A stretch of 64,000 nt of DNA from Kiritimatiellia bacterium (GCA_039807095.1 JBDHQM010000005.1:39033-103032); one strand, 5' to 3'; shown: positions 10,979 through 31,998, counted from the stretch's first letter. Program-made: numbers and translations. Notes: generated by a model from the sequence alone, not told the origin.

Positions 10979-11034
10979 GACTCATGCGCCCCCCCCCAAA
11001 AAAAAGAGGGAAGAAAAGACGAGCAGGCCGAATC

Positions 11035-12677: not shown

Positions 12678-12776
12678 TTAACGACATATTAAGAGGTGGT
12701 ACATCCCGACGGAAAAGATCGACCAAAACAGCGCCAATAACCCGACGCCAGCCAGCAAAAAAAGGGTGTCTTTCAT
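12678..12776 (-). CDS. Small single-TM phage protein (32 aa)
   Basis: MKDTLFLLAGVGLLALFWSIFSVG; ATGA overlap with upstream gene. Confidence 0.45.
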   Translation of the reverse strand: MKDTLFLLAGVGLLALFWSIFSVGMYHLLICR

Positions 12777-13225
12777 GCCCCGACATCTCCCTTTTTCGTC
12801 TCGAATTGCACGCGAGGCTGCGACTTGGTTTCGCACAGTCGAATGAGCGCGGCGGCGCCTTTCGGCATGACCGAACGCGCGAGCGCTCGGAAATCCGGCT
12901 TGAGCTTCCAAGCCGGGGCGCTATCAAAAAGCGAGTTGAAATAAACGCCCGCTGCTTTGCGCACCTTCTCTGTTGTAGGCCCCGCACCCGGAATAGAATT
13001 TTTGAGCGCAGGCGCCGGGAACTGAACTCTAGCCACACAACCATCCGCACCTGACGCCTCCCACGAAGTGCCGTCGCCATCTGTTGGGACATGATCCTCC
13101 TGGCGCGTTTCCGCCTCAGCAATGAGGGCTCTTTTCAACTCCTTCAACTCTGTTTCCAACTCGCGAATCTCGCGATCCAAGGCGACGGCCCGCGTGACGA
13201 GTTCTCCAATTTTCTTGTCGTTCAT
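12773..13225 (-). CDS. Phage early protein with N-terminal coiled coil
   Basis: Tight operon coupling after MuB; heptad pattern. Confidence 0.65.
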   Translation of the reverse strand: MNDKKIGELVTRAVALDREIRELETELKELKRALIAEAETRQEDHVPTDGDGTSWEASGADGCVARVQFPAPALKNSIPGAGPTTEKVRKAAGVYFNSLFDSAPAWKLKPDFRALARSVMPKGAAALIRLCETKSQPRVQFETKKGDVGA

Positions 13226-13228
13226 ATC

Positions 13229-14269
13229 TTAATCCTCGCCCATCATCTGCTTGCGCAGGGCAATGGCTTTGTGGACGTGAGACTCATCTAACTTCGCCTT
13301 TTCCTGATGGGCGATGCGCGACGCCACTTTGAGCGTTTCCGTGAGGATTCCCAACCGGCCCGGCGCGTTGGCGATGGCGAGCATATGTGCCATGAATTGT
13401 TCGCTTGGTCGGCGAATGTACTGAGCGAGAATCGGATCAATGTCTCGCGCCCGGATTTTTTTACGCAGCCGAATGGGCATTCCGATTCGACCGATGATTT
13501 GTTCGTACTGATATTCAGATTTCACCATCTGATCTTTGAACCGCTGCGTTGCGATCATCGCGAGGGCGCAGCCACGGCCATCGGCATAGAGATCGCGCAA
13601 AATTTCGAGCGCGACTGGCATTGAACGATAGTCCGACGGGACTAACCGGTGCGCCTCATCCACAATCAAAATTCGGTTCCGATTAAAGGCGCGCGCGATG
13701 GCTTCGTACATCTGAACCGTGTTCAGGTTCTTATTCACCCCCACGGCGTCTGCGATTCTGCGCATAAACATTTTCACGCCGCCAGTTGGCGGTGCGACTA
13801 CGTACACACTGGTCCCGTGGTTGTTTGCGTCGCGCCAGCGCAGCGCACTCACGGTCTTCCCCATGCGCGACTCTCCGACGATCAGCGTTATAGAGTTGTT
13901 CGCAAGCGCATAGTCCAGCCCGGCGGAAATCATCTTTGTGATGGCGTTATCCACGATCTCGTTTGTTTGGATTGTGGCGCGTTTTTCGGCGATGCGGCGG
14001 TAACTGCGAATTGCTTTCGTAATGTTCTCCCACGATCCTTCATAGGTGCCCTTGAGCGCGCGGAAGATGGTGGACCTATCGTATCCAATGGCTTCGCAGG
14101 CATCTGCCCATTCCAAGCGCTGATCTAGGATATGCTGATGGAACCATAGGAGATCCTCCTGCACAGTTTCCGGCAGTGGTTTCCAGTTTTCCATGTTCAA
14201 CGGCACATTGACGCGCGCGTGCGCGGATGCTGCGGTATTACTTTCGAGCTGCTCTTGTTTCGTCGTCAT
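13229..14269 (-). CDS. MuB-like AAA+ transposition ATPase
   Basis: Walker A GESRMGKT, Walker B ILIVDEAH, N-terminal HTH (ALKGTYEG); ATGA overlap with transposase. Confidence 0.9.
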   Translation of the reverse strand: MTTKQEQLESNTAASAHARVNVPLNMENWKPLPETVQEDLLWFHQHILDQRLEWADACEAIGYDRSTIFRALKGTYEGSWENITKAIRSYRRIAEKRATIQTNEIVDNAITKMISAGLDYALANNSITLIVGESRMGKTVSALRWRDANNHGTSVYVVAPPTGGVKMFMRRIADAVGVNKNLNTVQMYEAIARAFNRNRILIVDEAHRLVPSDYRSMPVALEILRDLYADGRGCALAMIATQRFKDQMVKSEYQYEQIIGRIGMPIRLRKKIRARDIDPILAQYIRRPSEQFMAHMLAIANAPGRLGILTETLKVASRIAHQEKAKLDESHVHKAIALRKQMMGED

Positions 14270-16318: not shown

Positions 16319-17017
16319 CTATGCCTCCTTCAAGAACTTTTTCATCGCCGCCAGCACATCGTCTAGCACCTCGGCAATCGTGACGATTTCGGCGCGGCTC
16401 AACTCCATCCAGAGCGGGTCTTTTATCCCGATAGCGTTGATGGATTTGTAGAGCTGCCCCCAATCCCGCTTCGCCGCCTCCCGCTTGATGCGCAGCCGCT
16501 CCTCCGGCGGAATGTCGCGCCGTCCGTTATACCCCCCCACCGCCTTCGGCTCTTTGATGATGCCCAGCTCGATGTACCATTCGCGCAACGACTGACCGTC
16601 CGTGGCTTTGGCGAGTGTTTCGATGAGGGCCGCGCGGTTTTTCTCAGGCAATTCAGAAGGCGCGACGGAGAAGAGGTTTTCCAAAAACGACACGTGTGTC
16701 GTTTTTGTGCAGAGTTTCTTAATCCCCTCTGCAAGGGCCATGTATCGCTGTGCCGTGCGCGTGGTAAACGGAATGGACGCTTCCACCCAACGCTCAAACT
16801 CGCCGTGTGGCAGTTCTGCCCGTGCCGCCTGCAATTCCAGCCCGGCTAAGGCGGCATGGACGGATGCCATGACGGCGTGCTGGCCTGCCGCCTCGTGGTG
16901 GCGGATGATTTCTTTTGTGCGGCCTTCAATGTCGCGCGCTGGCGTGAGGGCCAGCGCGCGGGTTTTGCGACCGCGCTGCATCTTGGACGGGGGCGGGATG
17001 AGGTCGGCTTTGCTCAT
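16319..17017 (-). CDS. DUF3102-like phage protein
   Basis: GLEL.AAR.ELPHGEFERWVE...TRTAQRYM. Confidence 0.75.
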   Translation of the reverse strand: MSKADLIPPPSKMQRGRKTRALALTPARDIEGRTKEIIRHHEAAGQHAVMASVHAALAGLELQAARAELPHGEFERWVEASIPFTTRTAQRYMALAEGIKKLCTKTTHVSFLENLFSVAPSELPEKNRAALIETLAKATDGQSLREWYIELGIIKEPKAVGGYNGRRDIPPEERLRIKREAAKRDWGQLYKSINAIGIKDPLWMELSRAEIVTIAEVLDDVLAAMKKFLKEA

Positions 17018-18788: not shown

Positions 18789-19115
18789 ATGGAGAATGCA
18801 CCCGAAACCATTGCGGCCAAAACCCGCAGTTCGCTTACGACGACATATTTAGTGTTGGGGTTACTCACTGTTGGTTCGCTTGTTGTCTGCGCGATCGTTG
18901 GCTCCGCGACTGCGGCGCTTGTGGTTGTGGGGATCTTTGCTTCGGCGCTGTTGCTGTGCGTGGTTTTCGCGCGGCTCTATATTGCGCTGCACATTCTTGA
19001 GCAGCTTGAACGGCTTAGCCAGCGTCCAGTCAGAGAGCGAGAGACGCCGCCATCTCCGTCCGCGCCTGCTCCAACGTCGGATCGCAAGGTATATGTGATT
19101 GACGCTCCGGGCTGA
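18789..19115 (+). CDS. Two-TM membrane protein (lysogenic accessory)
   Basis: Hydrophobic segments; follows repressor. Confidence 0.6.
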   Translation: MENAPETIAAKTRSSLTTTYLVLGLLTVGSLVVCAIVGSATAALVVVGIFASALLLCVVFARLYIALHILEQLERLSQRPVRERETPPSPSAPAPTSDRKVYVIDAPG

Positions 19116-19117
19116 TT

Positions 19118-19488
19118 ATGACCCAAGAAAAACAGACGAACCAATCGCCACTCACGGATTATTTATTGACTCTGCTCGTTGTGTGCGCCGTGATCATTTC
19201 GTTCCAGAATGCGGCGATCCTCCGCGATGGGAAGCGAACGATTGAATTCAAAATTGAAAAGATAGACTCGCTTTATTCGCTCGACAATACACCAGTAATG
19301 GCTGGGAGATCGTGCAGATGGTCCCGTATAGCGGTGAGAGATACTCTCAGCGGTCGTATGAGTTGCTGATGCGCCGACGCCTGACGCTTGCCGAAATGCA
19401 GCGAAAACGCGAAGTCGAAAAAATATTCGAGAGCTTGGACCGCCAGATAGAAGCGGAACGCAAAGCCGCCACACCCAAGACGAATTAG
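19118..19488 (+). pseudogene. Membrane-anchored DUF4177-like protein split by a -1 frameshift
   Basis: Frame 0 EFKIEKI continues in the -1 frame as YTSNGWEIVQM...YELLMRR to TAG at 19488. Confidence 0.55.
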
Positions 19489-19755
19489 AAAATATTTTCG
19501 CCGTTCGGAACGCGACGCTCCGGGCTGAACGACGCCCCTGCTGGCGCGTGTGATGGGCTGGGTTCAAAACGGACACACTGTGTCCGATTTGGCTGTGTCT
19601 ATGGAGCCAATGGATTTCTGACGTTTTTTCGGCGTTTGCTCATTCTGCGCAACGCTGAATGAGTGCTCTTCGTCATAGCGTCCTCGGCAACAACGCGCGC
19701 CTGCCCGTTTCGGCGGGAGGCGCGCGGTTCTTTCGCGCGGCGTGGGGGCGCGGTC

Positions 19756-20127
19756 ATGGATTTTAGCGCGATGCCGATGCTGGTGTTGATGGGCGCGGTG
19801 GTCGTGACGCTGGCGGGCATTCTCTCGCTGGTGAGCAACGTTGTCGGGATTTGGGACCGCGTGCGCACAAAGCCGCCGCTGCATCGTCAGTTCGCCTCAC
19901 ACGACGACCTCTCGTCGGCCCGCGACGCGGTCCATAAACGTGTTGACGGGGTTGAGGGAGCTGTGGCGGAGCTCGTACAGCAGTTCCAACAAGACCGTCG
20001 CGACCAGGCGGCTGCGCGGCGCTACATCCACAAGCGCATCAACAAAATTCTTTACGGGCTGGCCCGCATATACGAACGCAGCGGATTGAATTCGGAGGAA
20101 CTCACGCGCGATGAAGCTGAAGATTGA
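19756..20127 (+). CDS. TM plus coiled-coil protein (Mu gp25/DUF2730-like)
   Basis: N-terminal TM; position before gp26/27/28-like genes. Confidence 0.55.
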   Translation: MDFSAMPMLVLMGAVVVTLAGILSLVSNVVGIWDRVRTKPPLHRQFASHDDLSSARDAVHKRVDGVEGAVAELVQQFQQDRRDQAAARRYIHKRINKILYGLARIYERSGLNSEELTRDEAED

Positions 20128-20359
20128 AATTCTCAACACGCTCTCGCAGATCGGCGACTATTTGATGCCGCAGCGGGCACTGCAAACGGAATTGCAAATC
20201 AGCCTGAGTCCGCCGCCGACTATGGCGGAGGTTGACCTGGCGGTGCGGCAGTTGGAGGGCGATGGCTACATCATCGGCGTCACCAATGCGCTCACGCAGC
20301 AGAAGCGTTGGAAAATTTCTGATCGGGGGCGCGCGGCGCTGGCGGAGGCGCAGGGATGA
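20111..20359 (+). CDS. Small winged-helix protein (Mu gp26-like)
   Basis: LEGDGYI...WKISDRGRAAL. Confidence 0.6.
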   Translation: MKLKIEILNTLSQIGDYLMPQRALQTELQISLSPPPTMAEVDLAVRQLEGDGYIIGVTNALTQQKRWKISDRGRAALAEAQG

Positions 20360-20899: not shown

Positions 20900-21433
20900 A
20901 TGAGAAAACCGCGATCAGATTCCAAGTTGATGAGCCAGCTTTCCGAAGTGGCGCAGGCGCAGCTTTCCGAATGGATGCTCTCGGGGTTGCCCTATCACAC
21001 CATCCTTCCGATGGTGCAAAAGGAATTCGGGATCACAACATCGCTCGCGGCGTTGTCGGGATTTTATTCGTCGTATTGTTCCGCTGCGCTCATCGCGCGG
21101 AGGCAGCGCGCGGTGTCCACGGCTGATGCGGTGGCGGAAGAAGCCGCTGCATCGCCTGGGCGTTGGGACGCGGCTACGATTGATGCGCTCAAACAGCAGG
21201 CGTTTGAGCTTGCGATTCAACCCGGTGTGAACCCGCGCGAAGTGAAGTCGCTTTTCTCGCTCGTGCTCAAAGCAAAGGATCAGGACTTGGCCGAGCGGCA
21301 GCTCGAACAGCGCATCCGCGAGTACGAGGAGAAGGCGGCGGCGGCGAAAGCAGTGCTCGACGGAGTCACGAGCAAGGGCGGACTCACGGCGGAGACGCTC
21401 CAGAAAATCGAAGAAGCGGCGAGGATGCTCTAA
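20900..21433 (+). CDS. Mu gp27-like small terminase (DUF3486-like)
   Basis: RKPRSDSKL...GLTAETLQKIEE; precedes large terminase. Confidence 0.7.
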   Translation: MRKPRSDSKLMSQLSEVAQAQLSEWMLSGLPYHTILPMVQKEFGITTSLAALSGFYSSYCSAALIARRQRAVSTADAVAEEAAASPGRWDAATIDALKQQAFELAIQPGVNPREVKSLFSLVLKAKDQDLAERQLEQRIREYEEKAAAAKAVLDGVTSKGGLTAETLQKIEEAARML

Positions 21434-22842
21434 TGGGCGCGGCGAAGGTCATACCGCCGGACACGATCCTCCTCCCGTACCAGGCGAAATGGGTGAAAGA
21501 CCGCTCGCGTCTGAAGATTGCGGAAAAATCGCGACAGATCGGGTGGACGTGGGCGACGGCCTACGGACTTGTGCGCCGACAGGCGCAGGTGGATGCGCGG
21601 TTGGACAGTTGGATTTCGAGCCGCGATGAGATTCAGGCACGCCTCTTTCTGGAAGACTGCAAGAGCTTTGCAAACATCCTGAAAATCGGAGCGGAAGACC
21701 TCGGCGATCGGGTCATCGACGAAAAGGGCAACTCGGCCTTTGTGTTGCAGATGGCGAACGGCACGCGACTCCACTCGATGAGCTCAAACCCGGACGCGCA
21801 GGCAGGCAAACGCGGCTCGCGCGTCCTCGATGAGTTCGCGCTGCACAACGATCCGCGCAAACTTTACAGCATCGCTTATCCGGGTATCACGTGGGGCGGG
21901 CAGCTCGAAATTTTCTCGACGCATCGCGGCACTTACAACTTTTTCAACGAGCTGGTTGAAGAGGTTAAACACAAGGGGAATCCAAAAGGCTTCTCGCTAC
22001 ATCGGGTGACGCTGCAAGACGCGCTGGAACAGGGGTTCCTGTTCAAACTTCAGGAAAAGCTCCCCGCCGATGATCCACGGCAGGAAATGGATGAGGCGGC
22101 GTACTTCGATTTCATCCGCGCGGGAGCGCCTGATGAAGAAACGTTCCTCCAGGAATATATGTGCGTCCCGGCGAACGACGCGGCGGCGTTTCTGCCCTAT
22201 GACATGATCGCCGCGTGCGAGTATCCGGCCACAGAAGTCTGGGAAATGGATTTCGATGTTTCGCAAGGTCCGCTCTTTCTTGGGGTGGACATCGGGCGCG
22301 ATCACGATCTGACCGTCATCTGGGCGGTGGAAAAAATCGGCGGCATGTTTTTCACGCGCGTCGTTCGGGAGATGCAGGGCGCGGCGTTCTCCGAGCAGGA
22401 AGCGGTTCTATACGACATGCTGGATAACCCGCGCGTACGGCGCTGCGCGATAGACCGCACGGGAATCGGGCGGCAGTTTGCAGAACGCGCGACGGAGCGT
22501 TACGGCCAATATCGGATTGAAGAGGTAAATTTCAGCGGGCCGGTGAAAGAACAACTGGCCTATCCGGTGCGCGCGGCGTTTGAGGACAAGACCATTCGGA
22601 TCCCGAATGCGCCGAAGGTTCGGGCGGATCTTCGCAGCATCCAGAAATCAACAACGGAGCACGGGAATATCCGTTTTACAGCGGACCGGGGCAAGAACGG
22701 CCACGCGGATCGGTTCTGGGCGCTGGCGCTCGCGCTGCACGCGGGCAAAGACGCGCCGGTTGTTTTTGCGCCGCAGCGGTTTAAGGAGTCGAAATTCAGC
22801 CGCGCGCGCGAGGCGCGGCGCAATCGTGAGGTGCTGGCATGA
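21433..22842 (+). CDS. Terminase large subunit (Mu gp28-like)
   Basis: LLPYQ, KSRQIGWT, VLDEFA, GVDIGR..D, HADRFWALAL. Confidence 0.95.
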   Translation: MGAAKVIPPDTILLPYQAKWVKDRSRLKIAEKSRQIGWTWATAYGLVRRQAQVDARLDSWISSRDEIQARLFLEDCKSFANILKIGAEDLGDRVIDEKGNSAFVLQMANGTRLHSMSSNPDAQAGKRGSRVLDEFALHNDPRKLYSIAYPGITWGGQLEIFSTHRGTYNFFNELVEEVKHKGNPKGFSLHRVTLQDALEQGFLFKLQEKLPADDPRQEMDEAAYFDFIRAGAPDEETFLQEYMCVPANDAAAFLPYDMIAACEYPATEVWEMDFDVSQGPLFLGVDIGRDHDLTVIWAVEKIGGMFFTRVVREMQGAAFSEQEAVLYDMLDNPRVRRCAIDRTGIGRQFAERATERYGQYRIEEVNFSGPVKEQLAYPVRAAFEDKTIRIPNAPKVRADLRSIQKSTTEHGNIRFTADRGKNGHADRFWALALALHAGKDAPVVFAPQRFKESKFSRAREARRNREVLA

Positions 22843-24335
22843 TGTCGGTGAAGAAATGGGCGAAGCACAAGAGCCAATACAACCCGTTGCGTGGGCTGAC
22901 GATTCCGCGAGCGGTGACACTCCTCGAACAGCACGAACGCGGAGAATATGCGGATGTCCAGTGGGCGTTTAGATTTTGTGAGCGGCGCTATCCCGTCTTG
23001 ATGGCTCTGGTGAAGCGGCGCACCAGCGCCATTCTTGAAATGGAGATCAACATCAAGGCAATGCAGGTGAACCCGGGCGACGCCCGAACGCTGGCCCTCG
23101 CCGAACAGCAGGTGATTGTCCTGCGCGAGGCGTACGACCGCATAGACAATCTATACGAGGCGATTCACCACCTATGCCTTGCGAGCTTCCGCGAATTTGC
23201 GCACGTCGAAAAACACCGAAACGCCTACGGCGAGGTGACACACCTGGAGGTCTTGGATCAGTGGAACGTTGTTCGCTGCATGAGTTCCGGGCGCTGGAAA
23301 TATAACCCGGACGCGCTGAACGTGAACTACGCAGCGCTGCCCGATACGTCCATATTGGACATGCGGAATTTCATCTATCGCGAGGAACCGCTCCCGATTG
23401 ATCCGATTGCGCTGCTCGCGTTCATTCGCTCAAACATGTCCCAAAAAGATTGGGATTCGTTTGTGGAGACCTACGGCATCCCGCCGCTATTTGTGATTAT
23501 GCCACCGGGAATCTCGGAGGATAAGCAAAAGGAATATCAAGCCATCGCCGAAGAGGTCGCGGGCGACGCGCGCGGCGCGCTCCCCGGAGGGAGCGATGTT
23601 AAAACCGTAGACATCGGCGCGCGGGCACATCCGTTCAAGGAGCATAAGGACGATCAGCGTGCGGAGGTGGTGTTAGCGGGGACGGGTGGCTTACTCACGA
23701 TGCTGACTGAGTCAGGATCCGGCACGCTCGCCGGCAGTGCGCACGAAGAGACGTTTCGCAAAATCGCGGCCGGCGAGGCGAGGCTCATTTCGGAGGCATT
23801 TCAAAAACATTTTGATGCCGAAGTTTTGGAGCGTGCATTCCCGGGAGCACCGCGCCTCGCATATTTCGACCTCTCCGCCGGAGATGCAACCACTACGGAT
23901 GATGTGATTGAGCAAGCCAAGATGTTGAAAGAAGCGGGCTACACGATCGAGAAGCAACAGCTCGAAGAGAAAACGGGCTATCGCTTAGAAATTTGCGCCA
24001 TGCCCGACACGCCCGGGCGTGAACCGGACGGCGTCACGCGGAATCGCGCCACGCCGGCACCCTACAACCCGCGCCTTGTGGCGGATGGCATCAAGGAGAT
24101 TGCCGAGGCCCAGCGCGCGGCGCTGCGCCCCGTTGCAGAGGCTTTGCAAGGGCTGTACCGAGCCGCCGAAAGCGATGAGGTAAGCGATGCCGTGCTGACG
24201 GAGGAACTCGAATCCTTCCGCGCGATGTTGCCGCATTACATTGACCCCTCCTCTGAAATCGTGACGGCGATTGAGGAGCTGTTTGTTGCAGCGTGGGCGA
24301 ATGGGATTGAGGAGGCCGCTAATGAACGCGGTTGA
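22839..24335 (+). CDS. Portal protein (Mu gp29/DUF935)
   Basis: W..FVETYGIP, G..LT...SGSGTLAG.AH. Confidence 0.9.
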   Translation: MMSVKKWAKHKSQYNPLRGLTIPRAVTLLEQHERGEYADVQWAFRFCERRYPVLMALVKRRTSAILEMEINIKAMQVNPGDARTLALAEQQVIVLREAYDRIDNLYEAIHHLCLASFREFAHVEKHRNAYGEVTHLEVLDQWNVVRCMSSGRWKYNPDALNVNYAALPDTSILDMRNFIYREEPLPIDPIALLAFIRSNMSQKDWDSFVETYGIPPLFVIMPPGISEDKQKEYQAIAEEVAGDARGALPGGSDVKTVDIGARAHPFKEHKDDQRAEVVLAGTGGLLTMLTESGSGTLAGSAHEETFRKIAAGEARLISEAFQKHFDAEVLERAFPGAPRLAYFDLSAGDATTTDDVIEQAKMLKEAGYTIEKQQLEEKTGYRLEICAMPDTPGREPDGVTRNRATPAPYNPRLVADGIKEIAEAQRAALRPVAEALQGLYRAAESDEVSDAVLTEELESFRAMLPHYIDPSSEIVTAIEELFVAAWANGIEEAANERG

Positions 24336-24900
24336 TCGCGAAGGCATCCATTTAGAGGATGTTGTTGCGGTGGAGCTGTTCTGGACCTCCGCGCCCGGCC
24401 TCTTCGCACGATTGATCCGGCGAGTGACGCGCGGGCAGTGGTCGCATTGCGGCATCATCTTCGCGCTGCGCGACGGGCGGCGCGTGTATTACGAATCGCT
24501 CTTTGAACATGGGGTTGCCGGGCCCCATCCGCTTGAGAAGCTGATTGTCTGGGCCGTGGAGCCAGAACACGACGTTGAGCTCTGGCCGATTCCGTGGCTG
24601 TCAGACGCGGAGGCGCGCAACATCGCGCGCCGCGCGACTGAAACCTATGGCGCGGCGGGATATGGCCGTTGGCAAATCATTTCGCATTGGTGGTTTGAGC
24701 GCGTCGGTCGGCGCTATGGGTTCCGGATGCGGAACACGCCGAGCCGGGTGACATGCGCCGAATACGTCGCGCGTGCGTGCTTCCCCGAATACGACCTCCG
24801 CGATTCCAGCCGCGATTATTTTGACGGCGTCACGCCTCAGTCAACGTATGAGCGGCATATTCGCATAATGCATTCCCTTCGTGGAGGAGACTCACAATGA
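24322..24900 (+). CDS. Permuted papain-like NlpC/P60 (YiiX-like) peptidase/amidase
   Basis: His first (WSHCGI), Cys later (VTCAEYV), C-terminal VTP. Confidence 0.7.
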   Translation: MNAVDREGIHLEDVVAVELFWTSAPGLFARLIRRVTRGQWSHCGIIFALRDGRRVYYESLFEHGVAGPHPLEKLIVWAVEPEHDVELWPIPWLSDAEARNIARRATETYGAAGYGRWQIISHWWFERVGRRYGFRMRNTPSRVTCAEYVARACFPEYDLRDSSRDYFDGVTPQSTYERHIRIMHSLRGGDSQ

Positions 24901-25355
24901 AATCAATCGTCGCCAGCGGCTGTCTGCTGCTATTTGCCTGTGCCTGCACCTCATCGAAATCGAAACTCCGCATTGATGCGCCCGCAGCGCATCGCGCGGC
25001 CTTCGTTGATCTGCTTAACCGCGCGGCGGACTGCACCGGAAAGCCGCTGGTGAAGCAGACCTACACGCTGCGCACGCACAAGGGCGTCTCAAAAAAATAC
25101 GGATTTTGGCAAGCGCCCCTTCCTCCCAACAATACGATGGCCTGGGCACTAACCTGGAACGGCGGGCGCAATGTCGAGGTGGCTGCGGACCCGAAAACGG
25201 GCGCGATTGATTACCCGACGCTGCAACACGAGTGCGTCCACGCGGTCTTGATGCCTCATGGAATTCTGGGGCACCCATCCGAGTTCAAAAAATGCGCCAT
25301 CGAGTGGCATCTACTCTGCTTAGACGGTGTGACAATGGAGCCAACGGGAAAATGA
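24897..25355 (+). CDS. Lipoprotein with zincin HExxH motif
   Basis: LLLFACAC lipobox-like; LQHECVH...GILGH. Confidence 0.65.
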   Translation: MKSIVASGCLLLFACACTSSKSKLRIDAPAAHRAAFVDLLNRAADCTGKPLVKQTYTLRTHKGVSKKYGFWQAPLPPNNTMAWALTWNGGRNVEVAADPKTGAIDYPTLQHECVHAVLMPHGILGHPSEFKKCAIEWHLLCLDGVTMEPTGK

Positions 25356-25513
25356 AAAAATATGCGCGTTGTTTAGTCTGTGCCGCGTGGATTGCGGTGG
25401 CTGTGTCTGCTCCCGGATGTAAGAGCACAAAACCAACCTCGCCAGAAAGCGAGGATTACCGGCGCGATACGACGCCAGAGCACAACGGCGAATGGTGGAT
25501 CGGCGGCGAATGA
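25352..25513 (+). CDS. Small lipoprotein
   Basis: MKKYARCLVCAAWIAVAVSAPGC; ATGA overlaps at both ends. Confidence 0.55.
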   Translation: MKKYARCLVCAAWIAVAVSAPGCKSTKPTSPESEDYRRDTTPEHNGEWWIGGE

Positions 25514-26400
25514 AAATTCTCGTGATAGATAGTCAGGGCGGCGAGGGTATGAGTGCGGCCTATCTCTCGCAAATGAAGCACGTTCGCGTGCGCGGCGTGG
25601 AAATGGATGCCACACTTGGGCAGCCATGCCATCCACACGGCCTGATGACCGGCTATCTCGCCGCCTCGCTCTTGCATCCCGTCCACGGCGTGAAGCCAGG
25701 TGATGCCGAGCTTGTCTTTGTTCGGATATTCGACCAGCGGGCAAATTCCGTCGCCGATGCATCCAAGTGGATGCTTGATGTGATTTCCAGAGAGAAGCCG
25801 GACTACGTTGGCCGCTCATGGGGTGGCGTCTATACCCAGCCGCGCATGGGATCGCTGATGTGGGGGCAGTGGGTGTTTGATTACCGTGCGCTTCAACGCG
25901 AGTTGGGCTTTTTGGACTTCGGTAGCGCTGGCAACTCCGGGAATTGGCTACCCGATTCCAGCATCTCCTTCCCACAAGTCCTCATGCCGGACATCTGCAA
26001 CGTCATCGGCTCGTGCCGCCGCGATGGTTTGCCATCAGAATTCACGAGCTCCGGCCAGGGCGTCCAGTGCCTCGCATGGGGCGAAAAATTGTTCCTGAAC
26101 AACAATGGCACGTTGGAAGTAGGGTCAGGAACTTCATTCAGCGCGCCGAAGGTGTTGAGCCTCTGCGCGGTACAAAGGATTACCGCGCTTCAGGACTGGC
26201 GCGACTACGTTCGACGGAATGCGACAAAGCCAGTCGGATTTGAGGCCGCAGAGTCCCCGGTTTGGGGCGCGGGCAACATAGAAGACGAGTATCAACGCAA
26301 GTTCAGCCTTATCCCAATCGGTGATCGGGTAGGAAATTTGTCGATGCGGCCCACATGGCTCAGGCGGCAGTGGTTTGACTTCGCGGAGGTGCCAGCATGA
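25510..26400 (+). CDS. Subtilisin-like S8 serine peptidase
   Basis: VIDS, HPHG, SAGNSG, GSGTSFSAP. Confidence 0.85.
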   Translation: MKILVIDSQGGEGMSAAYLSQMKHVRVRGVEMDATLGQPCHPHGLMTGYLAASLLHPVHGVKPGDAELVFVRIFDQRANSVADASKWMLDVISREKPDYVGRSWGGVYTQPRMGSLMWGQWVFDYRALQRELGFLDFGSAGNSGNWLPDSSISFPQVLMPDICNVIGSCRRDGLPSEFTSSGQGVQCLAWGEKLFLNNNGTLEVGSGTSFSAPKVLSLCAVQRITALQDWRDYVRRNATKPVGFEAAESPVWGAGNIEDEYQRKFSLIPIGDRVGNLSMRPTWLRRQWFDFAEVPA

Positions 26401-27572
26401 AACCGCCTATGATCCTCAGACCTCCTAAAATGCGCTATACGGCCCGATCGCAAAACCCAGCCCTCAACCCGTCTTTGGCGTCATCTCCAAAATGCACAGG
26501 GTTACAGCTAAAATGCACAGGCATTCCGAAAGAGCCTGTCTTTTTCACCCACAACCGCGCCCTCCAGGAGGGAAATTCGGGCGCCGCTGACGGTTTTTAT
26601 CACATTGTCCCGCGCGGCGAGCATCCGGGCATCACCGCGAGCGGGAAAACGGTTGTTCAGGTTATCGATCAGGAAGCCGTGGACAAAATTATGGCCGCGT
26701 TTCGCGCCGTCCGGGCAAAGCCTAATTTTTCAGGGCTGCTCCTCGACTGGGAACACTTCAGCTATCAGGACGACAAGAAATCCGAGGCGGCGGGCTGGAT
26801 TCTGGATGTCGTCGAGCGCCCGGATGGGATTTATGCGCGAATCGACTGGACGCCCGCCGGAGAGAAGGATGTCACGAGCCGCGCCTACCGCTTCCTCTCG
26901 CCGACGCTCGACATAGAGACGATCGAAGGGAATCGCGTGCGTCCGATCGCGATCACGGACGCCGGGCTCACAAACGTGCCCATGTTCAAAACCTTGAAGA
27001 CTCTTAACCGCGCGGGAGCGGTTCTCCCCGCAGAAAAACAACACGGAGAAAAAGAAATGGAAAAAATCAAAGCGCTCCTCTTGCGTCTGCTCGGACTCCC
27101 CGACGACGCATCGGAAGCTGATATTGATGCGGCGGCGGAGAAAGCGCTGTCCGTAGCGGAGCAGGAAACGCTGCGTGAGGAAAACGAAGCGCTGCTCACG
27201 CAAAATCGCGACCTATGCAAGGCTCTCGCCGATCACGATCTGCGTGAGTATGAGGCGGTGATTGCCGATCCGGAGGCCATTCGGGAGGGCCTGACCCACA
27301 ACCGCGAGGCCACGCTCAAAATTCTGCGAGGCCTGCGGAAAGAGTCGCCGCGCCTGCCGATTCACAACCGCACCACCGCCAGCCGCCCGGCGACGTCGCC
27401 AATCGCCGGGTCGAAGGCGACCGCGACACTCGCGCAGAAACAGCGCGCGGCGGTCGAGGAATATCGCACGAAAAACCGCTGCACGTTCCGTCAGGCGTGG
27501 GACGCGGTGCGGACAGCGCAGCCGGAATTGTTCCCGGCTCCGGACGATGGAAGTGATAACGCGCAAACCTAA
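26397..27572 (+). CDS. Mu gpI-like prohead protease/scaffold
   Basis: LDWEH, AAGWI, WTPAG, YRFLSP, AGLTNVP. Confidence 0.9.
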   Translation: MKPPMILRPPKMRYTARSQNPALNPSLASSPKCTGLQLKCTGIPKEPVFFTHNRALQEGNSGAADGFYHIVPRGEHPGITASGKTVVQVIDQEAVDKIMAAFRAVRAKPNFSGLLLDWEHFSYQDDKKSEAAGWILDVVERPDGIYARIDWTPAGEKDVTSRAYRFLSPTLDIETIEGNRVRPIAITDAGLTNVPMFKTLKTLNRAGAVLPAEKQHGEKEMEKIKALLLRLLGLPDDASEADIDAAAEKALSVAEQETLREENEALLTQNRDLCKALADHDLREYEAVIADPEAIREGLTHNREATLKILRGLRKESPRLPIHNRTTASRPATSPIAGSKATATLAQKQRAAVEEYRTKNRCTFRQAWDAVRTAQPELFPAPDDGSDNAQT

Positions 27573-27593
27573 AAACAAGAAAGGAAATCAACT

Positions 27594-27986
27594 ATGAGCG
27601 CATTATTTGAACGCGCCGTGGCAATCGCGGCTGAAACCCCGGCAGAGGACCACACCCAGAAAAAGGGCTGCGTGGTGAAGTTCGCCGCTGACAAAGTCGC
27701 ACTAATTACTGGGGACTCTGATCTCCCGTATGGCGTCATTTTGGATGGCGAAGACATCGGGGGCACGGATTCAATCGCCATTTTCGGTGGCAATTGCGGC
27801 CCGGTGCGGGTGAAAGCGGGAGGGACCTGCACCAAGGGTAGCTTTGGCATGGCTACTGGAGTGGGGTCGGGTGTGAAAGACGATACGGGGAGCGGTAGCC
27901 GTTACATCGTGTGTCGGTTTCTTGAGTCTGGAGTTCTCGGCGAATTGGTAACAGCCGTCCTCGTATCTCCTGACCCGCGCAGCTAA
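27594..27986 (+). CDS. Capsid cement/decoration protein
   Basis: Gly-rich beta protein between protease and capsid genes. Confidence 0.65.
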   Translation: MSALFERAVAIAAETPAEDHTQKKGCVVKFAADKVALITGDSDLPYGVILDGEDIGGTDSIAIFGGNCGPVRVKAGGTCTKGSFGMATGVGSGVKDDTGSGSRYIVCRFLESGVLGELVTAVLVSPDPRS

Positions 27987-28012
27987 TCGAAACAAAATAA
28001 AGGAATCAAAAA

Positions 28013-28933
28013 ATGAGTATCAGACGACAAGGTTCTTTGAACCCCACGCTCACCAACTTCGCCGTTGGCGTCTCCCAAGACTTAAGTTCCGCGCTTGCGG
28101 AATTCATCGCGCCGACGGTGGATGCGCCCGATGTGATCGGGCAATACAAAGAGTTCAGCGAAAAGAACGCGTTTCAATTGCTGGACTCGCGCCGCCCTGT
28201 CGGCGGCCCGGCCACGCGCATTCAATTCGACGTGAACGACCCGACCTACAACTGCAAGCCTCACGCGCTGGAGGTTGCGGTGGATGATTCAGAGCGGCGT
28301 CCGGATGCGGAAAACCCGTTCGCTCCGGATGAGGCGAAGATCACCACGCTGATTCAGGCCGCTACGCTCTCGCACGAGGCTGAGGTTTTGGAGAAGATGC
28401 GCACGCAGCCTGCAGTTTCCGGTGTGGGCATCTGGTCGGATGCTTCCGTAGATCCAATCGCGGAGCTTGACGGGCAGATTGAGGCGTTAATCACCGCGAC
28501 GGGACGAGTGCCGAACCGCATGGTTATCGGCGCGACCGCTTGGACGATTCTACGCAACCACCCGAAGGTCATTGCCCGCCAGCCCGGTGCAGCCATTGTG
28601 GGGATCACACTTGCGCAGCTTGCGCAGATGCTGCGCAGCCCGAGCATCGAGATTCGCGAGGGCGTCCTTTCCGGCGATGCAAACAAGTTCGGGAAAGGGA
28701 AGGCGGCGAGCAATCTTCTCGGCGCTGAACTGACGATCTTCTATGCCTCGCCGTTCCCGACGCTCTATGACCCGTCGTTCATGAAGACGATCTCGGTCGG
28801 CGGAAAGGGAGGCGTCACGTCCGTTTGGACGTATCGCGACAATTCGTGCCGCTCCGATATTCATGCCGTGGATTGGTCGAGCGACATCAAGCTCACCTCG
28901 GCGGTTTGCGGCCGGAGGATTGTGTTGAGTTAA
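28013..28933 (+). CDS. Major capsid protein
   Basis: NPTLTN.A, WSD...DPI, TG..PN.M.IG...W..LRNHP. Confidence 0.85.
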   Translation: MSIRRQGSLNPTLTNFAVGVSQDLSSALAEFIAPTVDAPDVIGQYKEFSEKNAFQLLDSRRPVGGPATRIQFDVNDPTYNCKPHALEVAVDDSERRPDAENPFAPDEAKITTLIQAATLSHEAEVLEKMRTQPAVSGVGIWSDASVDPIAELDGQIEALITATGRVPNRMVIGATAWTILRNHPKVIARQPGAAIVGITLAQLAQMLRSPSIEIREGVLSGDANKFGKGKAASNLLGAELTIFYASPFPTLYDPSFMKTISVGGKGGVTSVWTYRDNSCRSDIHAVDWSSDIKLTSAVCGRRIVLS

Positions 28934-29390: not shown

Positions 29391-29849
29391 ATGGCGTGGC
29401 GATCCATAACGGAAGCGGATGTGCTAACGCGGCTCTCGGGCCCGGAACTTGAAACCTTCCGAAGCGCGGCACTTGCGGACGATCAAGCTGATCCCGTAGC
29501 CGATGCCATCCGCTACGTTGTGGATTTTGCGCGCGGTCACATCGCCGCGTGCTCAAACAATCGTTTGGGCGCAAGCGGGACAGTTCCAGAAAAGCTCGTC
29601 GGCGCCTGTCTTGACCTCATTGCTATCGAAATAATGAAACGCGCAGGCGGCGTCGTGATTGATCCGCAAGATGCGCGATCGAGCGCCGCGCGCGAGGCGC
29701 GACGGGTTCTCGAACGCGTAGCTGACTGTAAGTTTGCGGTGGAGCTGCCAGACGAACGCAGCCAAGAAGAAATTCCGACCCCCGCCGCGACGCCCTACAT
29801 CCGGGCGCGGCGACCCCAATTTCGCAGGGATCAACAGGAAGGAGCATGA
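29391..29849 (+). CDS. Mu gp36-like head-tail adaptor (DUF1320)
   Basis: VP..L..ACLDL...R...AREA...LERVA. Confidence 0.8.
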   Translation: MAWRSITEADVLTRLSGPELETFRSAALADDQADPVADAIRYVVDFARGHIAACSNNRLGASGTVPEKLVGACLDLIAIEIMKRAGGVVIDPQDARSSAAREARRVLERVADCKFAVELPDERSQEEIPTPAATPYIRARRPQFRRDQQEGA

Positions 29850-29850
29850 G

Positions 29851-30138
29851 ATGAGCGCAAAAGAGGCATTGGAGCGGAAATTCAAAGAGCTCGGCTATAC
29901 CCACGTCGAAATCAGCGAGACGGATAAACCGGGCGTGTTCGACGCGAAGCTCGACCCAGCGCATCTGCGCACGGAACGCGGGGACTGGCCCGCGACGGAA
30001 GGACTCCAGGAATCGCAAATCGTGTTGAACAACGTTTATGAATTCGCGGGAATGCTCATTCTGCGCGGCATTCTCTATGCGGCCGGCGAGGCGCTCAAAA
30101 AACGCGAACCTAAAAAAACGCAGGAGGCCGGCGGGTAA
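29851..30138 (+). CDS. Hypothetical phage protein
   Basis: RBS GGAG; operon coupling. Confidence 0.55.
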   Translation: MSAKEALERKFKELGYTHVEISETDKPGVFDAKLDPAHLRTERGDWPATEGLQESQIVLNNVYEFAGMLILRGILYAAGEALKKREPKKTQEAGG

Positions 30139-30630
30139 ATGGGCGACGTGCTCATAGAGCGCGGCGCGTTCGCGCAGCTCCAGGAGAGTGTGGCCAGCGC
30201 ACTGCGGGAAGACCGCTATTTTTCGGACATCCGCGTCATCACGGAGCGCACCCACGACCTCGAAAACGAAATCCAGCGCGGATTGAGCGGTCTCGCGAAG
30301 TTTGGCGATGCGGCGGGCATTGTCGCCATCGTCGTGACGCCGCGCGGCAAGGTCGGCAAACCTAATCTGAGCGGCCCGCATTTTGACGATGTAACGGTGA
30401 TTGTCCGCGTGCTCGAAAACGTCAACGTTAATATGGGAAAAATCGGAACGAAGAAACCCGCCTCGGAATGCGCGGAGGTAATCGCCTCCATCCTGCACCA
30501 CCTGATGATCCCCGGTTTCCACGCCTCGCTCAACATCGAGGACGTGGGCATCGTCTCGGTTCCTCAACAACACCTGCTCGCCTACGACGTGCGCGGCAGT
30601 ACGCAAGTAACGATTAAACGAAGGGAATAA
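30139..30630 (+). CDS. Putative tail terminator/completion protein
   Basis: Size and position before tube gene. Confidence 0.5.
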   Translation: MGDVLIERGAFAQLQESVASALREDRYFSDIRVITERTHDLENEIQRGLSGLAKFGDAAGIVAIVVTPRGKVGKPNLSGPHFDDVTVIVRVLENVNVNMGKIGTKKPASECAEVIASILHHLMIPGFHASLNIEDVGIVSVPQQHLLAYDVRGSTQVTIKRRE

Positions 30631-30633
30631 GAT

Positions 30634-31572
30634 ATGGCTACCATTGATCGCACAACAATTCTGAAAGGCCCGGCTGTCGTGATATTTAACTCCGTGAATT
30701 ATTACACGGAAGACGACATCACGCTGACGCCGCGCATCGAAACCTTCGATGTGCCCAGCTCCATTAACGGGACGGAATCACAACGCTACTCCAACATCGT
30801 GATGGAGGTCTCGTTCAAGCCTAAGGGCGAATGGAGCCACGCCAAAGCGCTCTGGGCGGCGTTCGCCAACCCCGTGATCGGCTCCTCGATCTATGGCGGC
30901 TCGGACAAGGACATCGTGATCCATTCGCTGGATGGCCGAAAGATGACACTGAAATGTGCGGCGTGCGTCTCGCCGCCTGAACTGCATTTCTCCACCGTCA
31001 ACACAATGGTCGGAAGCGTAACATTCCGTGCACTCGGAGAGAATAATGTAGACTGGACAGACGCCTCGAAGCGCATCGTCGAATCGGCGCAGGCGTTTGC
31101 CGTGGCTGCGCAAAATCCCGACTCGGTGATTACTCAGCCCTACAAGGTGAGCTGGGGCAGTTCGCCCTTTGCGAATATGGAAACAGAAGACGGCATTCGC
31201 CTGTCGCTCGATGTGTCGCTCAACCCGACCACCGTGGACAGTTATGGGATTGTGGATGAAACGATTGAAAACGTCGTGGTCTCCGCGCGCTTCATTCCCG
31301 TGGGCCTCACCCAGACACAATACCTCACACTGCTCAAGATTCAGGGTGCGGGGGTCACGCGCGGCGCAAGCCTCGGCGCGGTGAACTCCAACACGCTCGA
31401 AGTGGTCGGCACCGGGGTCTATGCCGGAGTCAATGGCGCGGCTCCCACGCAAGGTGTTTTCCGATACGGCCGCAACGTTCTTCGCCTCGGGGAAGTCGCG
31501 ATGCAGGCGCAGCGAAAATTCAGCGCAGGCGTCGCGCAGCCGCTCTTTGTTTTGGCCGACGCAAAGCCATAA
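30634..31572 (+). CDS. Putative major tail tube protein
   Basis: ILKGPA N-terminus; two-fold internal similarity; position. Confidence 0.6.
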   Translation: MATIDRTTILKGPAVVIFNSVNYYTEDDITLTPRIETFDVPSSINGTESQRYSNIVMEVSFKPKGEWSHAKALWAAFANPVIGSSIYGGSDKDIVIHSLDGRKMTLKCAACVSPPELHFSTVNTMVGSVTFRALGENNVDWTDASKRIVESAQAFAVAAQNPDSVITQPYKVSWGSSPFANMETEDGIRLSLDVSLNPTTVDSYGIVDETIENVVVSARFIPVGLTQTQYLTLLKIQGAGVTRGASLGAVNSNTLEVVGTGVYAGVNGAAPTQGVFRYGRNVLRLGEVAMQAQRKFSAGVAQPLFVLADAKP

Positions 31573-31587
31573 CGCTGGAGATGCCGC

Positions 31588-31998
31588 GTGAGGATTTGGA
31601 TAGACACCTATCAACTCGCCGATGAACACACCGAGGGCGTGAGTAACTTCTACTCGCGCCCCCGACGCAATCTCGAAATCCGCGAAGGTGTTCGCCGCGC
31701 TCACATCGGGCTTGTGGATCGCGCCAATCAACGGATGCAGCATTCGTTCAACATCAAAAGAACCCACGCCGACGCGGCGAGCGCGGAAATCTATATGTTG
31801 GATCACCCCGCCGATGTTCCGGCGCAGGGGGTGCTTAAGTTCGAATTCACATTCCCGGACGGCACGAAGGCGTACCGCTGGATTGTGGCCGCAGCGATAG
31901 AAGCAATGACCGTTTCCTACTCCGGCTGCCTGACGCATCACTCATACACGATTATCGGCAGCGAACTTCTCAAGGTGGATCCCGGCCATGCAAATTAA
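31588..31998 (+). CDS. Putative tail protein
   Basis: Position; beta-rich. Confidence 0.45.
   Translation: MRIWIDTYQLADEHTEGVSNFYSRPRRNLEIREGVRRAHIGLVDRANQRMQHSFNIKRTHADAASAEIYMLDHPADVPAQGVLKFEFTFPDGTKAYRWIVAAAIEAMTVSYSGCLTHHSYTIIGSELLKVDPGHAN

Follow-up and report, generated by a model that had tools for sequence, protein, structure and literature searches.

Organization of the post-portal region

The analysed window is a 64,000-nucleotide stretch from a Kiritimatiellia bacterium (GCA_039807095.1, JBDHQM010000005.1:39033-103032), with positions counted from its first letter. At 24322-26400, four co-directional ORFs on the plus strand, here called A to D, lie between the portal and gpI genes of a prophage head operon. 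The two flanking genes belong to the same operon and encode a Mu-type portal (22839..24335, plus strand; PF06074, 109.4 bits) and a Mu gpI-type head protease/scaffold (26397..27572, plus strand; PF10123, 101.3 bits, phrog_328). All junctions from TerL to gpI overlap, by 14 nt at portal/ORF A and by a 4-nt ATGA at TerL/portal, A/B, B/C, C/D and D/gpI, which bears out a preliminary description of this DNA as containing four translationally coupled genes directly after the portal. AGGAG-type ribosome sites were found upstream of A, B and gpI, and neither promoter-like sites (5 versus 4.2 expected) nor terminator-like sites (19 versus 15.3 expected) were in excess. A, B and D had codon scores of 0.07-0.10, lower than the 0.16-0.22 of the core head genes. 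In Mu the slot between portal and gpI holds gpF/gpG; no Phage_Mu_F match was obtained for A-D or among the other window ORFs scanned.

ORF C and ORF D form a conserved gene pair

ORF D (25510..26400, plus strand, 296 aa) is a subtilase (peptidase S8), as the preliminary description had stated from its D/H/N/S motifs, and proteolysis is predicted from the family match and the intact catalytic residues. It scored above the PF00082 cut-off (30.7 bits versus 21.8), residues D7, H43, N142 and S209 were invariant among 20 homologues, 20 of 22 homologues carried a precomputed PF00082 annotation, and the family profile matched subtilisin BPN' at E 2.4e-10 as well as the intracellular serine proteases 7xr8 and 7y6m. 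The start was set at 25510 because the homologues and the database entry begin with MKI, so that the chain begins 6 residues ahead of the catalytic Asp. A leader and a pro-domain were missing in 20/20 homologues and a hydrophobicity scan found no hydrophobic segment in ORF D. The family is small, with 22 clusters in 5.8 billion proteins and zero matches among 50,697 GenBank phage records. A sample of 401 genomes from the phylum yielded it in 7, each belonging to the class of the window. The host genome contains a single full-length copy and a second, weak match on contig C67 (E 0.0014, 19.5 bits).

ORF C (25352..25513, plus strand) encodes a 53-aa mini-lipoprotein, an earlier assignment that is upheld by its conservation. 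The product has a positively charged N-terminus, a hydrophobic stretch and a lipobox Cys, giving a mature form of ~31 aa; Cys23 was invariant in 10/10 homologues and Gly22 nearly invariant. The same 10 homologues share a C-terminal motif, Y-x-x-D-[TL]-T-P, in which Y36, D39, T41 and P42 are invariant.

A census of the subtilase family gave 22 non-identical loci, at 19 of which the DNA upstream of the subtilase could be read. A short lipoprotein of the ORF C type flanked the subtilase at 15 of these 19 loci (14 directly upstream and 1 directly downstream), a ~200-aa lipoprotein was found instead at 2 and a protein with two TM segments at 1, the neighbours at one further locus being left out of the classification. 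C+D is a conserved phage-borne two-gene unit. When the complex of C and D was predicted in three runs, ipSAE values of 0.01, 0.91 and 0.92 were obtained (median 0.91; best control 0.00), a mark reached by 58/80 solved complexes and 2/110 mismatched pairs, these counts being approximate and custom alignments having been used. The runs agreed in at least 8% of contacts, with a partner pLDDT of at least 35. The modelled interface is made up of the invariant motif of ORF C and the family-conserved residues R171, G173, W190, P241, K251, W252, E258 and Q262 of ORF D, and ORF C is predicted to dock onto ORF D. Action of the pair at the envelope is partly supported.

ORF A and ORF B

ORF A (24322..24900, plus strand, 192 aa) was assigned to the permuted NlpC/P60 enzymes (YaeF/YiiX-like) from its model, fold matches and conservation. 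The AF2 model had a pLDDT of 92.8, and the best Foldseek matches were 3kw0 (E 7e-5, TM 0.54) and YiiX 2if6 (E 3.3e-3), the fold matches having a Foldseek probability of 1.00 and a TM of about 0.5-0.67. Phage C92-like proteins and poxvirus OPG091 were among the BFVD matches, and phrog_1128 was matched at 4.3e-10. The permuted order, His42 before Cys145, was seen in an alignment of 80 sequences in which C145 is invariant and H42 is conserved in at least 90%. As positions of this alignment, Y114 is invariant and Y56 nearly so. For YaeF/YiiX-like enzymes, PMC3142127 describes an additional tyrosine that is conserved and an S1 pocket that is hydrophobic. The claim of a permuted NlpC/P60 enzyme was accordingly sustained in fold and His-before-Cys order and not in Pfam, given that ORF A stayed below the C92 (PF05708) cut-off (13.8 bits versus 27) and that PF05708 weakly touched 3 of 80 relatives (best E 0.0021). 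The family comprises at least 280 representative clusters at E<=0.001, with a single copy in the host genome, and ORF A contains no hydrophobic segment.

Characterised YiiX-type enzymes act on the fatty-acyl groups of lipids or lipoproteins, which they cut or transfer. By analogy, ORF A is probably directed at lipids or acyl groups rather than peptidoglycan. A hydrophobic pocket in permuted NlpC/P60 enzymes and a fatty acid bound by YiiX are described in PMC3142127, Tox-Act1 is presented as a phospholipase in PMC12994826, and the account of LnsA, which is needed for lipoprotein N-acylation, lists YiiX and 3KW0 as its closest matches (PMC7387801).

ORF B (24897..25355, plus strand, 152 aa) is an orphan lipoprotein in which an L-F-A-C lipobox and a HExxHxxxxxH motif were read from the translation. 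It had no Pfam, PHROG, NCBIfam or PDB match, the homologue search found no relative, and the single-sequence AF2 model (pLDDT 35.8) was unusable, so no zincin fold was recognized; PhageMetallopep (0.82) and BSP (0.81) in the ESM Atlas are leads only. The proposed HExxH lipoprotein therefore retains its motif and lipobox, with neither a family nor a zincin fold match to accompany them. The combination of cysteine, zinc and serine peptidase chemistry seen earlier in these genes was overstated, because the class of A is linked to lipids and B has a lipobox and a motif only; D alone holds as a peptidase.

Distribution and genomic company of the C+D pair

Genes of the ORF A type lie directly behind the portal in four phages (the window, L003, L007 with an hmm E of 8.7e-6, and L005 by eye) and go with the portal whether C+D is present or absent; in G002 such a gene is found alongside a candidate endolysin of the canonical SLT type. 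Of the 9 relatives found via the portal, on contigs that are fragments (CheckV 27-58% for G002-G004), 8 lack C+D, and the pair is therefore dispensable in this lineage. Four of these 8 join portal to gpI directly. The post-portal slot also carries other cargo: L003 has a gene in which C5 DNA-methyltransferase motifs were recognised by eye, and L020 a 463-aa protein whose N-terminus resembles a signal peptide. The region is best explained as an insert of composite make-up within the late (head) operon, its three parts, A, B and C+D, being independent. A single cassette, as first envisaged, is contradicted by the lack of relatives of B, by the association of A with the portal regardless of C+D and by the presence of C+D in only 1/9 portal relatives.

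Three divergent phages (the window, L003 and L020) have C+D between portal and gpI, and in L054, without a gpI match, the pair immediately follows the portal. These positions, together with the A-like genes directly behind four portals and the lack of a Phage_Mu_F match among the ORFs scanned, are compatible with a role in the virion, in which A and possibly D would replace Mu gpF/gpG, be packed into the head and act in membrane penetration at infection or in head maturation. Poxvirus OPG091, a BFVD match of ORF A, is virion-associated. Nevertheless, we regard such a role as very unlikely, given that lipoproteins processed at the host membrane are improbable particle parts, that the gpI head protease is already there, and that C+D is also found far from head genes (G201, L017-L019, L021 and L004).

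At these other loci the pair can be seen in different company. In the three copies in G201 and in G150 the order is tail-fibre-like gene, 87-aa membrane protein, lipoprotein, C, subtilase and prophage end, where either an integrase-like gene (PDB XerC/lambda Int, E 8e-7) or tRNA-Met marks the boundary; a DUF1353 gene precedes the lipoprotein in 2 of the 4 loci. In L021 a protein with two TM segments is followed by the subtilase, a terS-like ORF (by position only) and TerL, and the 5 ORFs upstream of the C-like gene in L019 comprise 3 that contain a hydrophobic segment, 1 that encodes a lipoprotein and 1 with neither feature. That C+D elsewhere sits where lysis genes sit, after holin-like proteins or at the end of a late operon, is partly supported by these loci.

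A lipoprotein-anchored protease, perhaps with a lipid enzyme, could also destroy or mask receptors or other surface proteins and thereby block superinfection or keep progeny off debris, with no part in lysis. Receptors are masked by some small lipoproteins of phages, T5 Llp and phi80 Cor among them, and the lipoproteins in the module, its patchy and mobile distribution (1/9 portal relatives) and its varying position within late regions would fit such a function. On the other hand, the genes lack a separate promoter and are expressed through coupling to head genes, unlike the usual expression of lysogenic-conversion genes, a leaderless protease would still require a membrane lesion to reach its partner, and the module is repeatedly found beside holin-like proteins and at late-operon ends. 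Surface remodelling or exclusion is thus unlikely.

A lipid/ester hydrolase was found near C+D at 9 of 22 loci, and these enzymes are of four unrelated types: YiiX-like in the window and L003, a patatin in G300 (PF01734, 83.8 bits), DUF1353 in L017/18 (Pfam 9.4e-14), L022, L015, L052 and L055, and an α/β-hydrolase in L002 (ESM Atlas structure, TM 0.80). The protein on which DUF1353 was founded, TtaP, has been identified as a phospholipase A2 (PMC11525133). The recurrent exchange of four hydrolase types beside C+D is a clear lead to the function of the pair. Together with the lysis-type positions it would be unexpected in a chance collection of genes, which makes it doubtful that A-D are passengers in a post-portal hot spot, with the subtilase and lipoprotein maturing, for example, an exported peptide or protein and with lysis carried out by a cryptic endolysin and spanins. 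Such passengers would account for the differing slot cargo (L003, L020) and for its absence in 4/9 relatives, for the orphan status of ORF B and for the low codon scores of A, B and D, and a hidden endolysin is likely because most of the prophage ORFs cannot be annotated.

Endolysin families and membrane genes upstream of the terminase

The window contig (C56) gave no match to PF00959, PF01464, PF01510, PF13539, TIGR02594, PF00877, PF05257 or PF01183; PF00182 and PF05838 gave none either, nor did their positive controls. Similarly, no SLT, Phage_lysozyme, Amidase_2, TIGR02594, CHAP or GH25 match was found on 8 subtilase-bearing prophage contigs, and GH19 and GH108 were matched neither there nor by their controls. 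The Pfam scan of the window covered roughly 50 ORFs; real ORFs outside this set are 29734-31998 (plus strand), 12773-13225 (minus strand) and a minus-strand gene from 13229 whose upstream end is uncertain. About 40 of the ~50 prophage ORFs scanned match nothing, and the missing endolysin therefore carries little weight alone, although its absence as originally noted was confirmed for the families tested. Two of three relatives without C+D carry an endolysin family (SLT in G002 and TIGR02594, 91.9 bits, in G003). The third, G004, has neither C+D nor a recognisable endolysin, and missing endolysin matches are therefore common in these divergent phages. The preliminary description had proposed that related phages with neither the cassette nor alternative lysis genes would mark it as dispensable; the pair is indeed missing from most portal relatives, with endolysin family matches in two of three such relatives, G002 and G003, and by this criterion it counts as dispensable for the lineage.

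The host makes peptidoglycan (mraY, 348.6 bits), and no wall-cutting enzyme could be assigned among the window genes. Cleavage of peptidoglycan is not known for subtilases or for YiiX-type enzymes. The suggested attack on peptidoglycan cross-links is not supported, since the fold class of A points to lipids and no peptidoglycan-cutting step was found.

Three small membrane proteins are encoded on the plus strand upstream of the terminase genes. A 108-aa hydrophobic protein (18789..19115), with one segment passing the hydrophobicity scan and two membrane spans by eye, showed a weak similarity to Phage_holin_3_6 (E 0.0098, below cut-off) and is a possible holin-like partner. The adjacent 83-aa protein (19118..19369) has one N-terminal hydrophobic segment in the same scan and no family match, and may also belong to a lysis slot. 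The third, of ~124 aa (19753..20127), has no family match either and combines an N-terminal membrane segment with a coiled-coil-like tail (by eye), so it is i-spanin-like in shape only. It has a homologue in L003 (28% identity, E 6e-12), and similarly built proteins precede an ~80-aa gene, a gp27-like gene and TerL in L020, G003, G004, L011 and L013. No spanin family match was found. ORF C was considered as an o-spanin and rejected, because this sole membrane-anchored coiled-coil-like gene lies 5 kb upstream and C pairs with the subtilase. In the window the module is embedded among the head genes, and 4-5 kb separate it from the holin-like genes, which counts against a lysis reading.

A proposed role at the host envelope

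We tentatively favour a late envelope-attack module whose products act on the host envelope, most likely aiding phage exit; the timing, route to the periplasm, substrates and lysis role that we infer for it are as follows. A-D would all be made late along with the head proteins. B and C would be exported and then lipid-anchored, and A and D would stay cytoplasmic up to the point at which the inner membrane is opened by the small membrane proteins whose genes precede those of the terminase. The conserved C-terminal motif of C would then capture D at the membrane, and the docked D would cleave envelope proteins while A attacks acyl chains. The route by which a leaderless subtilase might reach a periplasmic lipoprotein is purely surmised here, and the mechanism leaves the peptidoglycan-cutting step unaccounted for.

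A broader proposal is that in phages of Kiritimatiellia and related Verrucomicrobiota a leaderless subtilase passes through holin lesions, docks on a mini-lipoprotein already in place and, with an exchangeable lipid hydrolase (YiiX-like, patatin, DUF1353/PLA2 or α/β-hydrolase), dismantles the outer envelope. Such an effector would take the place of spanins and might assume some of the endolysin's work as well. We consider this conceivable and at present rather improbable. If true, these phages would handle the outer-envelope step in another way, with a lipoprotein-docked protease and a lipid hydrolase acting together, and would do so in bacteria whose envelope and phages have hardly been studied. 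Even without a role in lysis, C+D is a compact module in which a ~20-residue motif is predicted to recruit a 296-residue protease, and it has no described counterpart. C+D is an undescribed phage gene pair that may help the virus to leave the cell.

Comparison with known systems

ORF D shares the D/H/N/S order of subtilisin-type S8 peptidases (BPN' and the Bacillus intracellular serine proteases), but it has neither a signal peptide nor an I9-type pro-domain, is phage-borne and is accompanied by a small lipoprotein at most readable loci (15/19). ORF A has the fold and the His-before-Cys order of the YaeF/YiiX-like proteins (3kw0, 2if6, C92, OPG091/G6, the T6SS effector Tox-Act1 and S. aureus LnsA), but constitutes a family of its own below the C92 cut-off, coupled to a phage portal gene. 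A-D occupy the same position in a Mu-type head module as gpF/gpG, although without a Phage_Mu_F match and in a slot that is empty in 4/9 relatives.

Well-studied tailed phages of Gram-negative bacteria exit with the help of a holin and a peptidoglycan hydrolase, together with a spanin or a comparable step at the outer membrane. A subtilase is not known as a component of any described lysis system, and literature searches found none. The two-component spanins Rz/Rz1 of lambda and the esterase LysB of mycobacteriophages carry out the outer-membrane steps of lysis. Here too a small late lipoprotein (ORF C) is present, along with a membrane-anchored coiled-coil-like protein in the lysis slot; in contrast to spanins, ORF C is tied to a protease gene and not to the coiled-coil-like gene 5 kb off. 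LysB sets a precedent for enzymatic attack on the outer layer in the course of lysis.

Organization of the late region

The host genome is 2.72 Mb (96% complete) and the window is a piece of one contig, in which the prophage spans approximately 11.4-41.4 kb and carries a Mu-type head module. The module consists of a gp27-like gene (20900-21433, PF11985), TerL (21433-22842, Terminase_6N/6C), the portal gene (22839-24335, PF06074), ORFs A-D (24322-26400), the gpI protease/scaffold gene (26397-27572, PF10123), a 130-aa gene without family match (27594-27986) and the major head protein gene (28013-28933, phrog_1005). Overlaps of 4 nt (ATGA) are present at the TerL/portal, A/B, B/C, C/D and D/gpI junctions, the overlap between portal and ORF A is 14 nt, and no enrichment of promoter-like or terminator-like sites was found. 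Given these overlapping junctions and the lack of enrichment of such sites, ORFs A-D belong to the late head operon and are not self-standing conversion genes, and the preliminary description of four translationally coupled genes is borne out by the overlapping reading frames that run from portal to gpI. The idea that the genes form a surface remodelling or exclusion module would accommodate the lipoproteins encoded by ORFs B and C and would also have to accommodate the late operon in which they lie; we consider it unlikely.

Three bioreactor-sludge runs of a different study (X2-X4) contain, at low depth, pieces of the head genes and of ORFs A-D that are nearly identical to the window (0-1 differences; window 20900-28933), and none of the contigs from these three runs bridges a deleted A-D cassette. 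These pieces are the same phage occurring elsewhere and say nothing on function.

At the right end the prophage is abutted by a tRNA-Ala (GGC) gene (41543-41618, minus strand), beyond which lie host genes for a TPR-LysM lipoprotein (41954-42727) and, by eye, murG (44454-45533). Just left of the first prophage genes (11034-11510) there are direct repeats (length about 124-171 nt, identity 92-96%) at a spacing of 209-250 nt, and a protein with a PEP-CTERM tail and a weak Laminin_G_3 match (20.0 bits versus a cut-off of 20.7) is encoded just outside the left border (10172-10978). The early region is transcribed leftwards (minus strand; 14266-16317, 16319-17017 and about 13229-14270) and encodes a 683-aa protein that is 41-53% identical to proteins of two related contigs, G002 and G004, and has no Pfam or PHROG match. 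A DUF3102 protein and a gene of about 349 aa, 65% identical to a G004 gene, are also present. The early leftward genes may include a candidate divergent transposase and helper pair.

Distribution of ORFs A-D among related phages

ORFs A-D were compared with nine viral contigs sharing the portal at 40-48% identity. Only one of the nine (L012, with L001 and L003 belonging to the same phage) carries the lipoprotein-subtilase pair C+D. The portal directly adjoins gpI in four (L006, L008, L011 and L013), a doubtful 134-aa ORF lies between them in L009, no gpI match was found within the L010 locus, and an A-like gene is the only insertion in L007 (hmm E 8.7e-6) and L005 (by eye only). In L003 the slot holds an A-like gene, a gene in which cytosine-5 DNA methyltransferase motifs were seen by eye (8699-9574) in the place of ORF B, a C-like gene, the subtilase and a further lipoprotein. 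In L020 the portal is more distant (28% identity), and the gene order begins with a 463-aa protein whose N-terminus resembles a signal peptide, followed by a lipoprotein, a C-like gene and the subtilase. The 463-aa protein has no Pfam or PDB match, and its glycosidase-like appearance, judged by eye only, was not counted as evidence. Judged from this comparison of gene content, ORF A travels with the portal, ORF C travels with ORF D and ORF B is unique, which indicates that ORFs A-D are not one cassette and that their proposed unity was overstated.

ORF B carries a lipobox and an HExxHxxxxxH motif. The word-index search returned ORF B alone, neither the PDB (phmmer, E<=10) nor the family databases gave a match, and the AF2 single-sequence model (pLDDT 35.8) was set aside as unusable. 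The BLAST match to the 88-aa HExxH proteins found downstream of the subtilase in L017, L019 and L025 (E 0.012) is too weak to establish kinship.

The subtilase and its lipoprotein partner

ORF D is a subtilase (PF00082, 30.7 bits versus a cut-off of 21.8), for which a word-index search of 5.8 billion proteins returned only 22 clusters, each of about 295 aa. The residues D7, H43, N142 and S209 are invariant in the alignment of 20 of these 22 clusters, in agreement with the D/H/N/S motifs noted previously, and among solved structures the family profile matched subtilisin BPN' (E 2.4e-10) and also intracellular serine proteases of Bacillus. All 20 aligned subtilases begin about six residues ahead of the catalytic Asp and ORF D is therefore without a signal peptide or pro-domain; no hydrophobic segment was found in it either. 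As a single sequence ORF D had no match in the viral contigs and the family alignment was needed to find relatives, and neither ORF D (50,697 records) nor ORF A had a tblastn match in GenBank phages.

ORF C is a 53-aa lipoprotein, and its lipobox Cys and Y-x-x-D-[TL]-T-P motif show no variation among 10 homologues. When the complex of ORF D and mature ORF C was predicted in three runs (contact agreement at least 8%, partner pLDDT at least 35), the ipSAE values were 0.01, 0.91 and 0.92 (median 0.91; best control 0.00); of 80 solved complexes 58 attained this ipSAE mark, as did 2 of 110 mismatched pairs, counts that are only rough since our own alignments were supplied. The predicted interface joins the invariant motif of ORF C to family-conserved subtilase residues, mainly in the C-terminal half and away from D7/H43/S209 (alignment to BPN' numbering), and we tentatively read the predicted docking as anchoring rather than inhibition. 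A role of ORF C as protease inhibitor was dropped in view of a predicted interface that would lie mostly away from the catalytic triad and of the invariant lipobox, which also argues for a true lipoprotein and against a RiPP precursor. Tat 'hitch-hiking' export of ORF D was likewise dropped, as most ORF C homologues are without a twin-arginine motif.

Subtilase loci were gathered by scanning contigs from viruses, genomes and metagenomes with the alignment and by searching a sample of 401 genomes of the phylum with an HMM; seven of these genomes were positive, the window's own included, all from the same class and from six genera. After identical sequences had been merged and distant S8 matches at E ~1e-10 (L027-L033) left out, 22 non-identical loci were obtained, with readable DNA upstream of the subtilase at 19. 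A short motif lipoprotein lies directly upstream of the subtilase at 14/19 loci and directly downstream at 1/19 (L026). At 2/19 (L002 and L056) the upstream gene encodes a lipoprotein of about 200 aa (mutual identity 38%), and at 1/19 (L021) a 2-TM protein flanks the subtilase; the remaining locus of the 19 is L057. Two subtilase copies look broken, one being split into two overlapping ORFs (L025, 402-1291) and the other carrying an in-frame TGA (L057, G243:C11).

ORF A and lipid-directed enzymes

ORF A gave a weak match to Pfam C92 (13.8 bits) and a match to phrog_1128 (4e-10), and a profile search of 1.84 billion representatives placed it in a family of 280 clusters at E<=0.001. The AF2 model (pLDDT 92.8; alignment of 80 of the 280 clusters) was grouped by Foldseek with the permuted NlpC/P60 structures 3kw0 and 2if6 (YiiX), its further matches included poxvirus OPG091 and numerous 'C92' proteins of phages, and H42 is N-terminal of C145, i.e. 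in permuted order. According to published work, permuted members of this class have a hydrophobic pocket and YiiX contained a fatty acid (PMC3142127), permuted members are directed at lipids, Tox-Act1 being a phospholipase (PMC12994826), and LnsA, which is required for lipoprotein N-acylation in S. aureus, has YiiX and 3KW0 as closest matches (PMC7387801). Because the published class is lipid-linked, an acyl hydrolase or transferase is a more likely identity for ORF A than a peptidase acting on peptidoglycan. The term 'three peptidases' used previously thus went too far, given also that ORF B is without support from relatives, families, the PDB or a model. A role as virion or morphogenesis proteins, proposed mainly for ORF A, would fit its association with the portal; it appears improbable.

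A lipid or ester hydrolase of varying family is found near C+D at 9 of the 22 loci. It is YiiX-like in the window and L003, a patatin-like phospholipase encoded between TerL and portal in L054 (G300:C8, 6506-7480; 83.8 bits), a DUF1353 protein in L017/18 (Pfam 9.4e-14), L022, L015, L052 and L055, and an α/β-hydrolase in L002, where a 194-aa protein without Pfam or PDB match has fold support from the ESM Atlas only. A published report describes TtaP, the founding DUF1353 member, as a phospholipase A2, and its Table S1 is stated to list DUF1353 fusions to protease domains (PMC11525133).

Search for an endolysin

The host has mraY (348.6 bits), and phage exit therefore requires cutting a wall. 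No muralytic domain was found among the roughly 50 prophage ORFs by Pfam and PHROG scans. Six-frame searches of the window's contig gave no Phage_lysozyme, SLT, Amidase_2, M15_4, TIGR02594, NLPC_P60, CHAP or GH25 match, and no match to SLT, Phage_lysozyme, Amidase_2, TIGR02594, CHAP or GH25 was found on the seven further prophage contigs that carry the subtilase; the lack of GH19 and GH108 matches carries little weight as the positive controls were silent everywhere. The claim that the phage has no recognisable endolysin hence holds for the families searched, within a prophage in which about 40 of the ORFs match nothing at all.

Three relatives without C+D were compared over 30-38 kb of sequence. 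In G002 there is a small SLT protein (33.7 bits) whose N-terminus contains a hydrophobic stretch, and in G003 the slot ahead of the terminase genes holds a TIGR02594 protein (91.9 bits). No recognisable endolysin was found in G004, which indicates that lysis genes of this lineage commonly escape recognition. A recognisable endolysin was thus present in 0/8 contigs with C+D versus 2/3 without, in small numbers of fragments from related genomes, and this pattern is suggestive. That ORFs A-D are unrelated passengers and an endolysin is hidden elsewhere would agree with the many unmatched ORFs, and would have to treat the recurrence of lipid or ester hydrolases near the pair as incidental; we regard it as rather doubtful.

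The pre-terminase slot of the window encodes three small membrane proteins (18789-19115, 19118-19369 and 19753-20127) and no enzyme, and no gene could be assigned to the wall-cutting step. A conserved trio of a membrane-anchored coiled-coil-like protein, a protein of about 80 aa and a gp27-like protein precedes TerL in the window (19753-20127, 20111-20359 and 20900-21433), L003, L020, G003, G004, L011 and L013. The coiled-coil-like gene of L011 and L013 is immediately preceded by a lipoprotein gene, and the two look like a spanin pair.

Position of the subtilase loci and proposed role

In the window, L003 and L020 the pair C+D occupies the gap between portal and gpI; in L054, where no gpI match was seen, it comes immediately after the portal, and in G045 and G201 it is found 1-4 kb past the capsid gene. 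In L021 the subtilase is located between the 2-TM protein and the terminase genes, and in L018 and L019 C+D follows several small hydrophobic proteins. In a low-GC phage lineage (L017, L019 and L025) the subtilase is followed by the 88-aa HExxH protein, a membrane peptide of 37-38 aa and a protein of about 255 aa with metallophosphoesterase-like motifs (by eye), and a 356-aa protein of similar kind (by eye) occurs in L004 (L004/L024). Downstream in L054 (G300:C8, 12040-15297) there is a 1085-aa protein that by eye resembles a MuF-type head protein carrying a large extension.

We tentatively favour a late envelope-directed module, in which a docked protease is combined with a lipid-type enzyme and an additional lipoprotein and which would aid egress; the envelope direction suggested previously is judged right. 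The literature searches turned up neither a phage subtilase-lipoprotein pair nor a lysis system based on proteases. The loci of G201 (three copies) and G150 run from a tail-fibre-like gene through an 87-aa membrane protein, a 137-aa lipoprotein, C and the subtilase to the prophage end, with a DUF1353 gene between the membrane protein and the lipoprotein at 2/4 of these loci and the end marked by an integrase-like gene (L052) or by tRNA-Met (L053). A position of this kind is the site of the holin and endolysin genes in many temperate phages.
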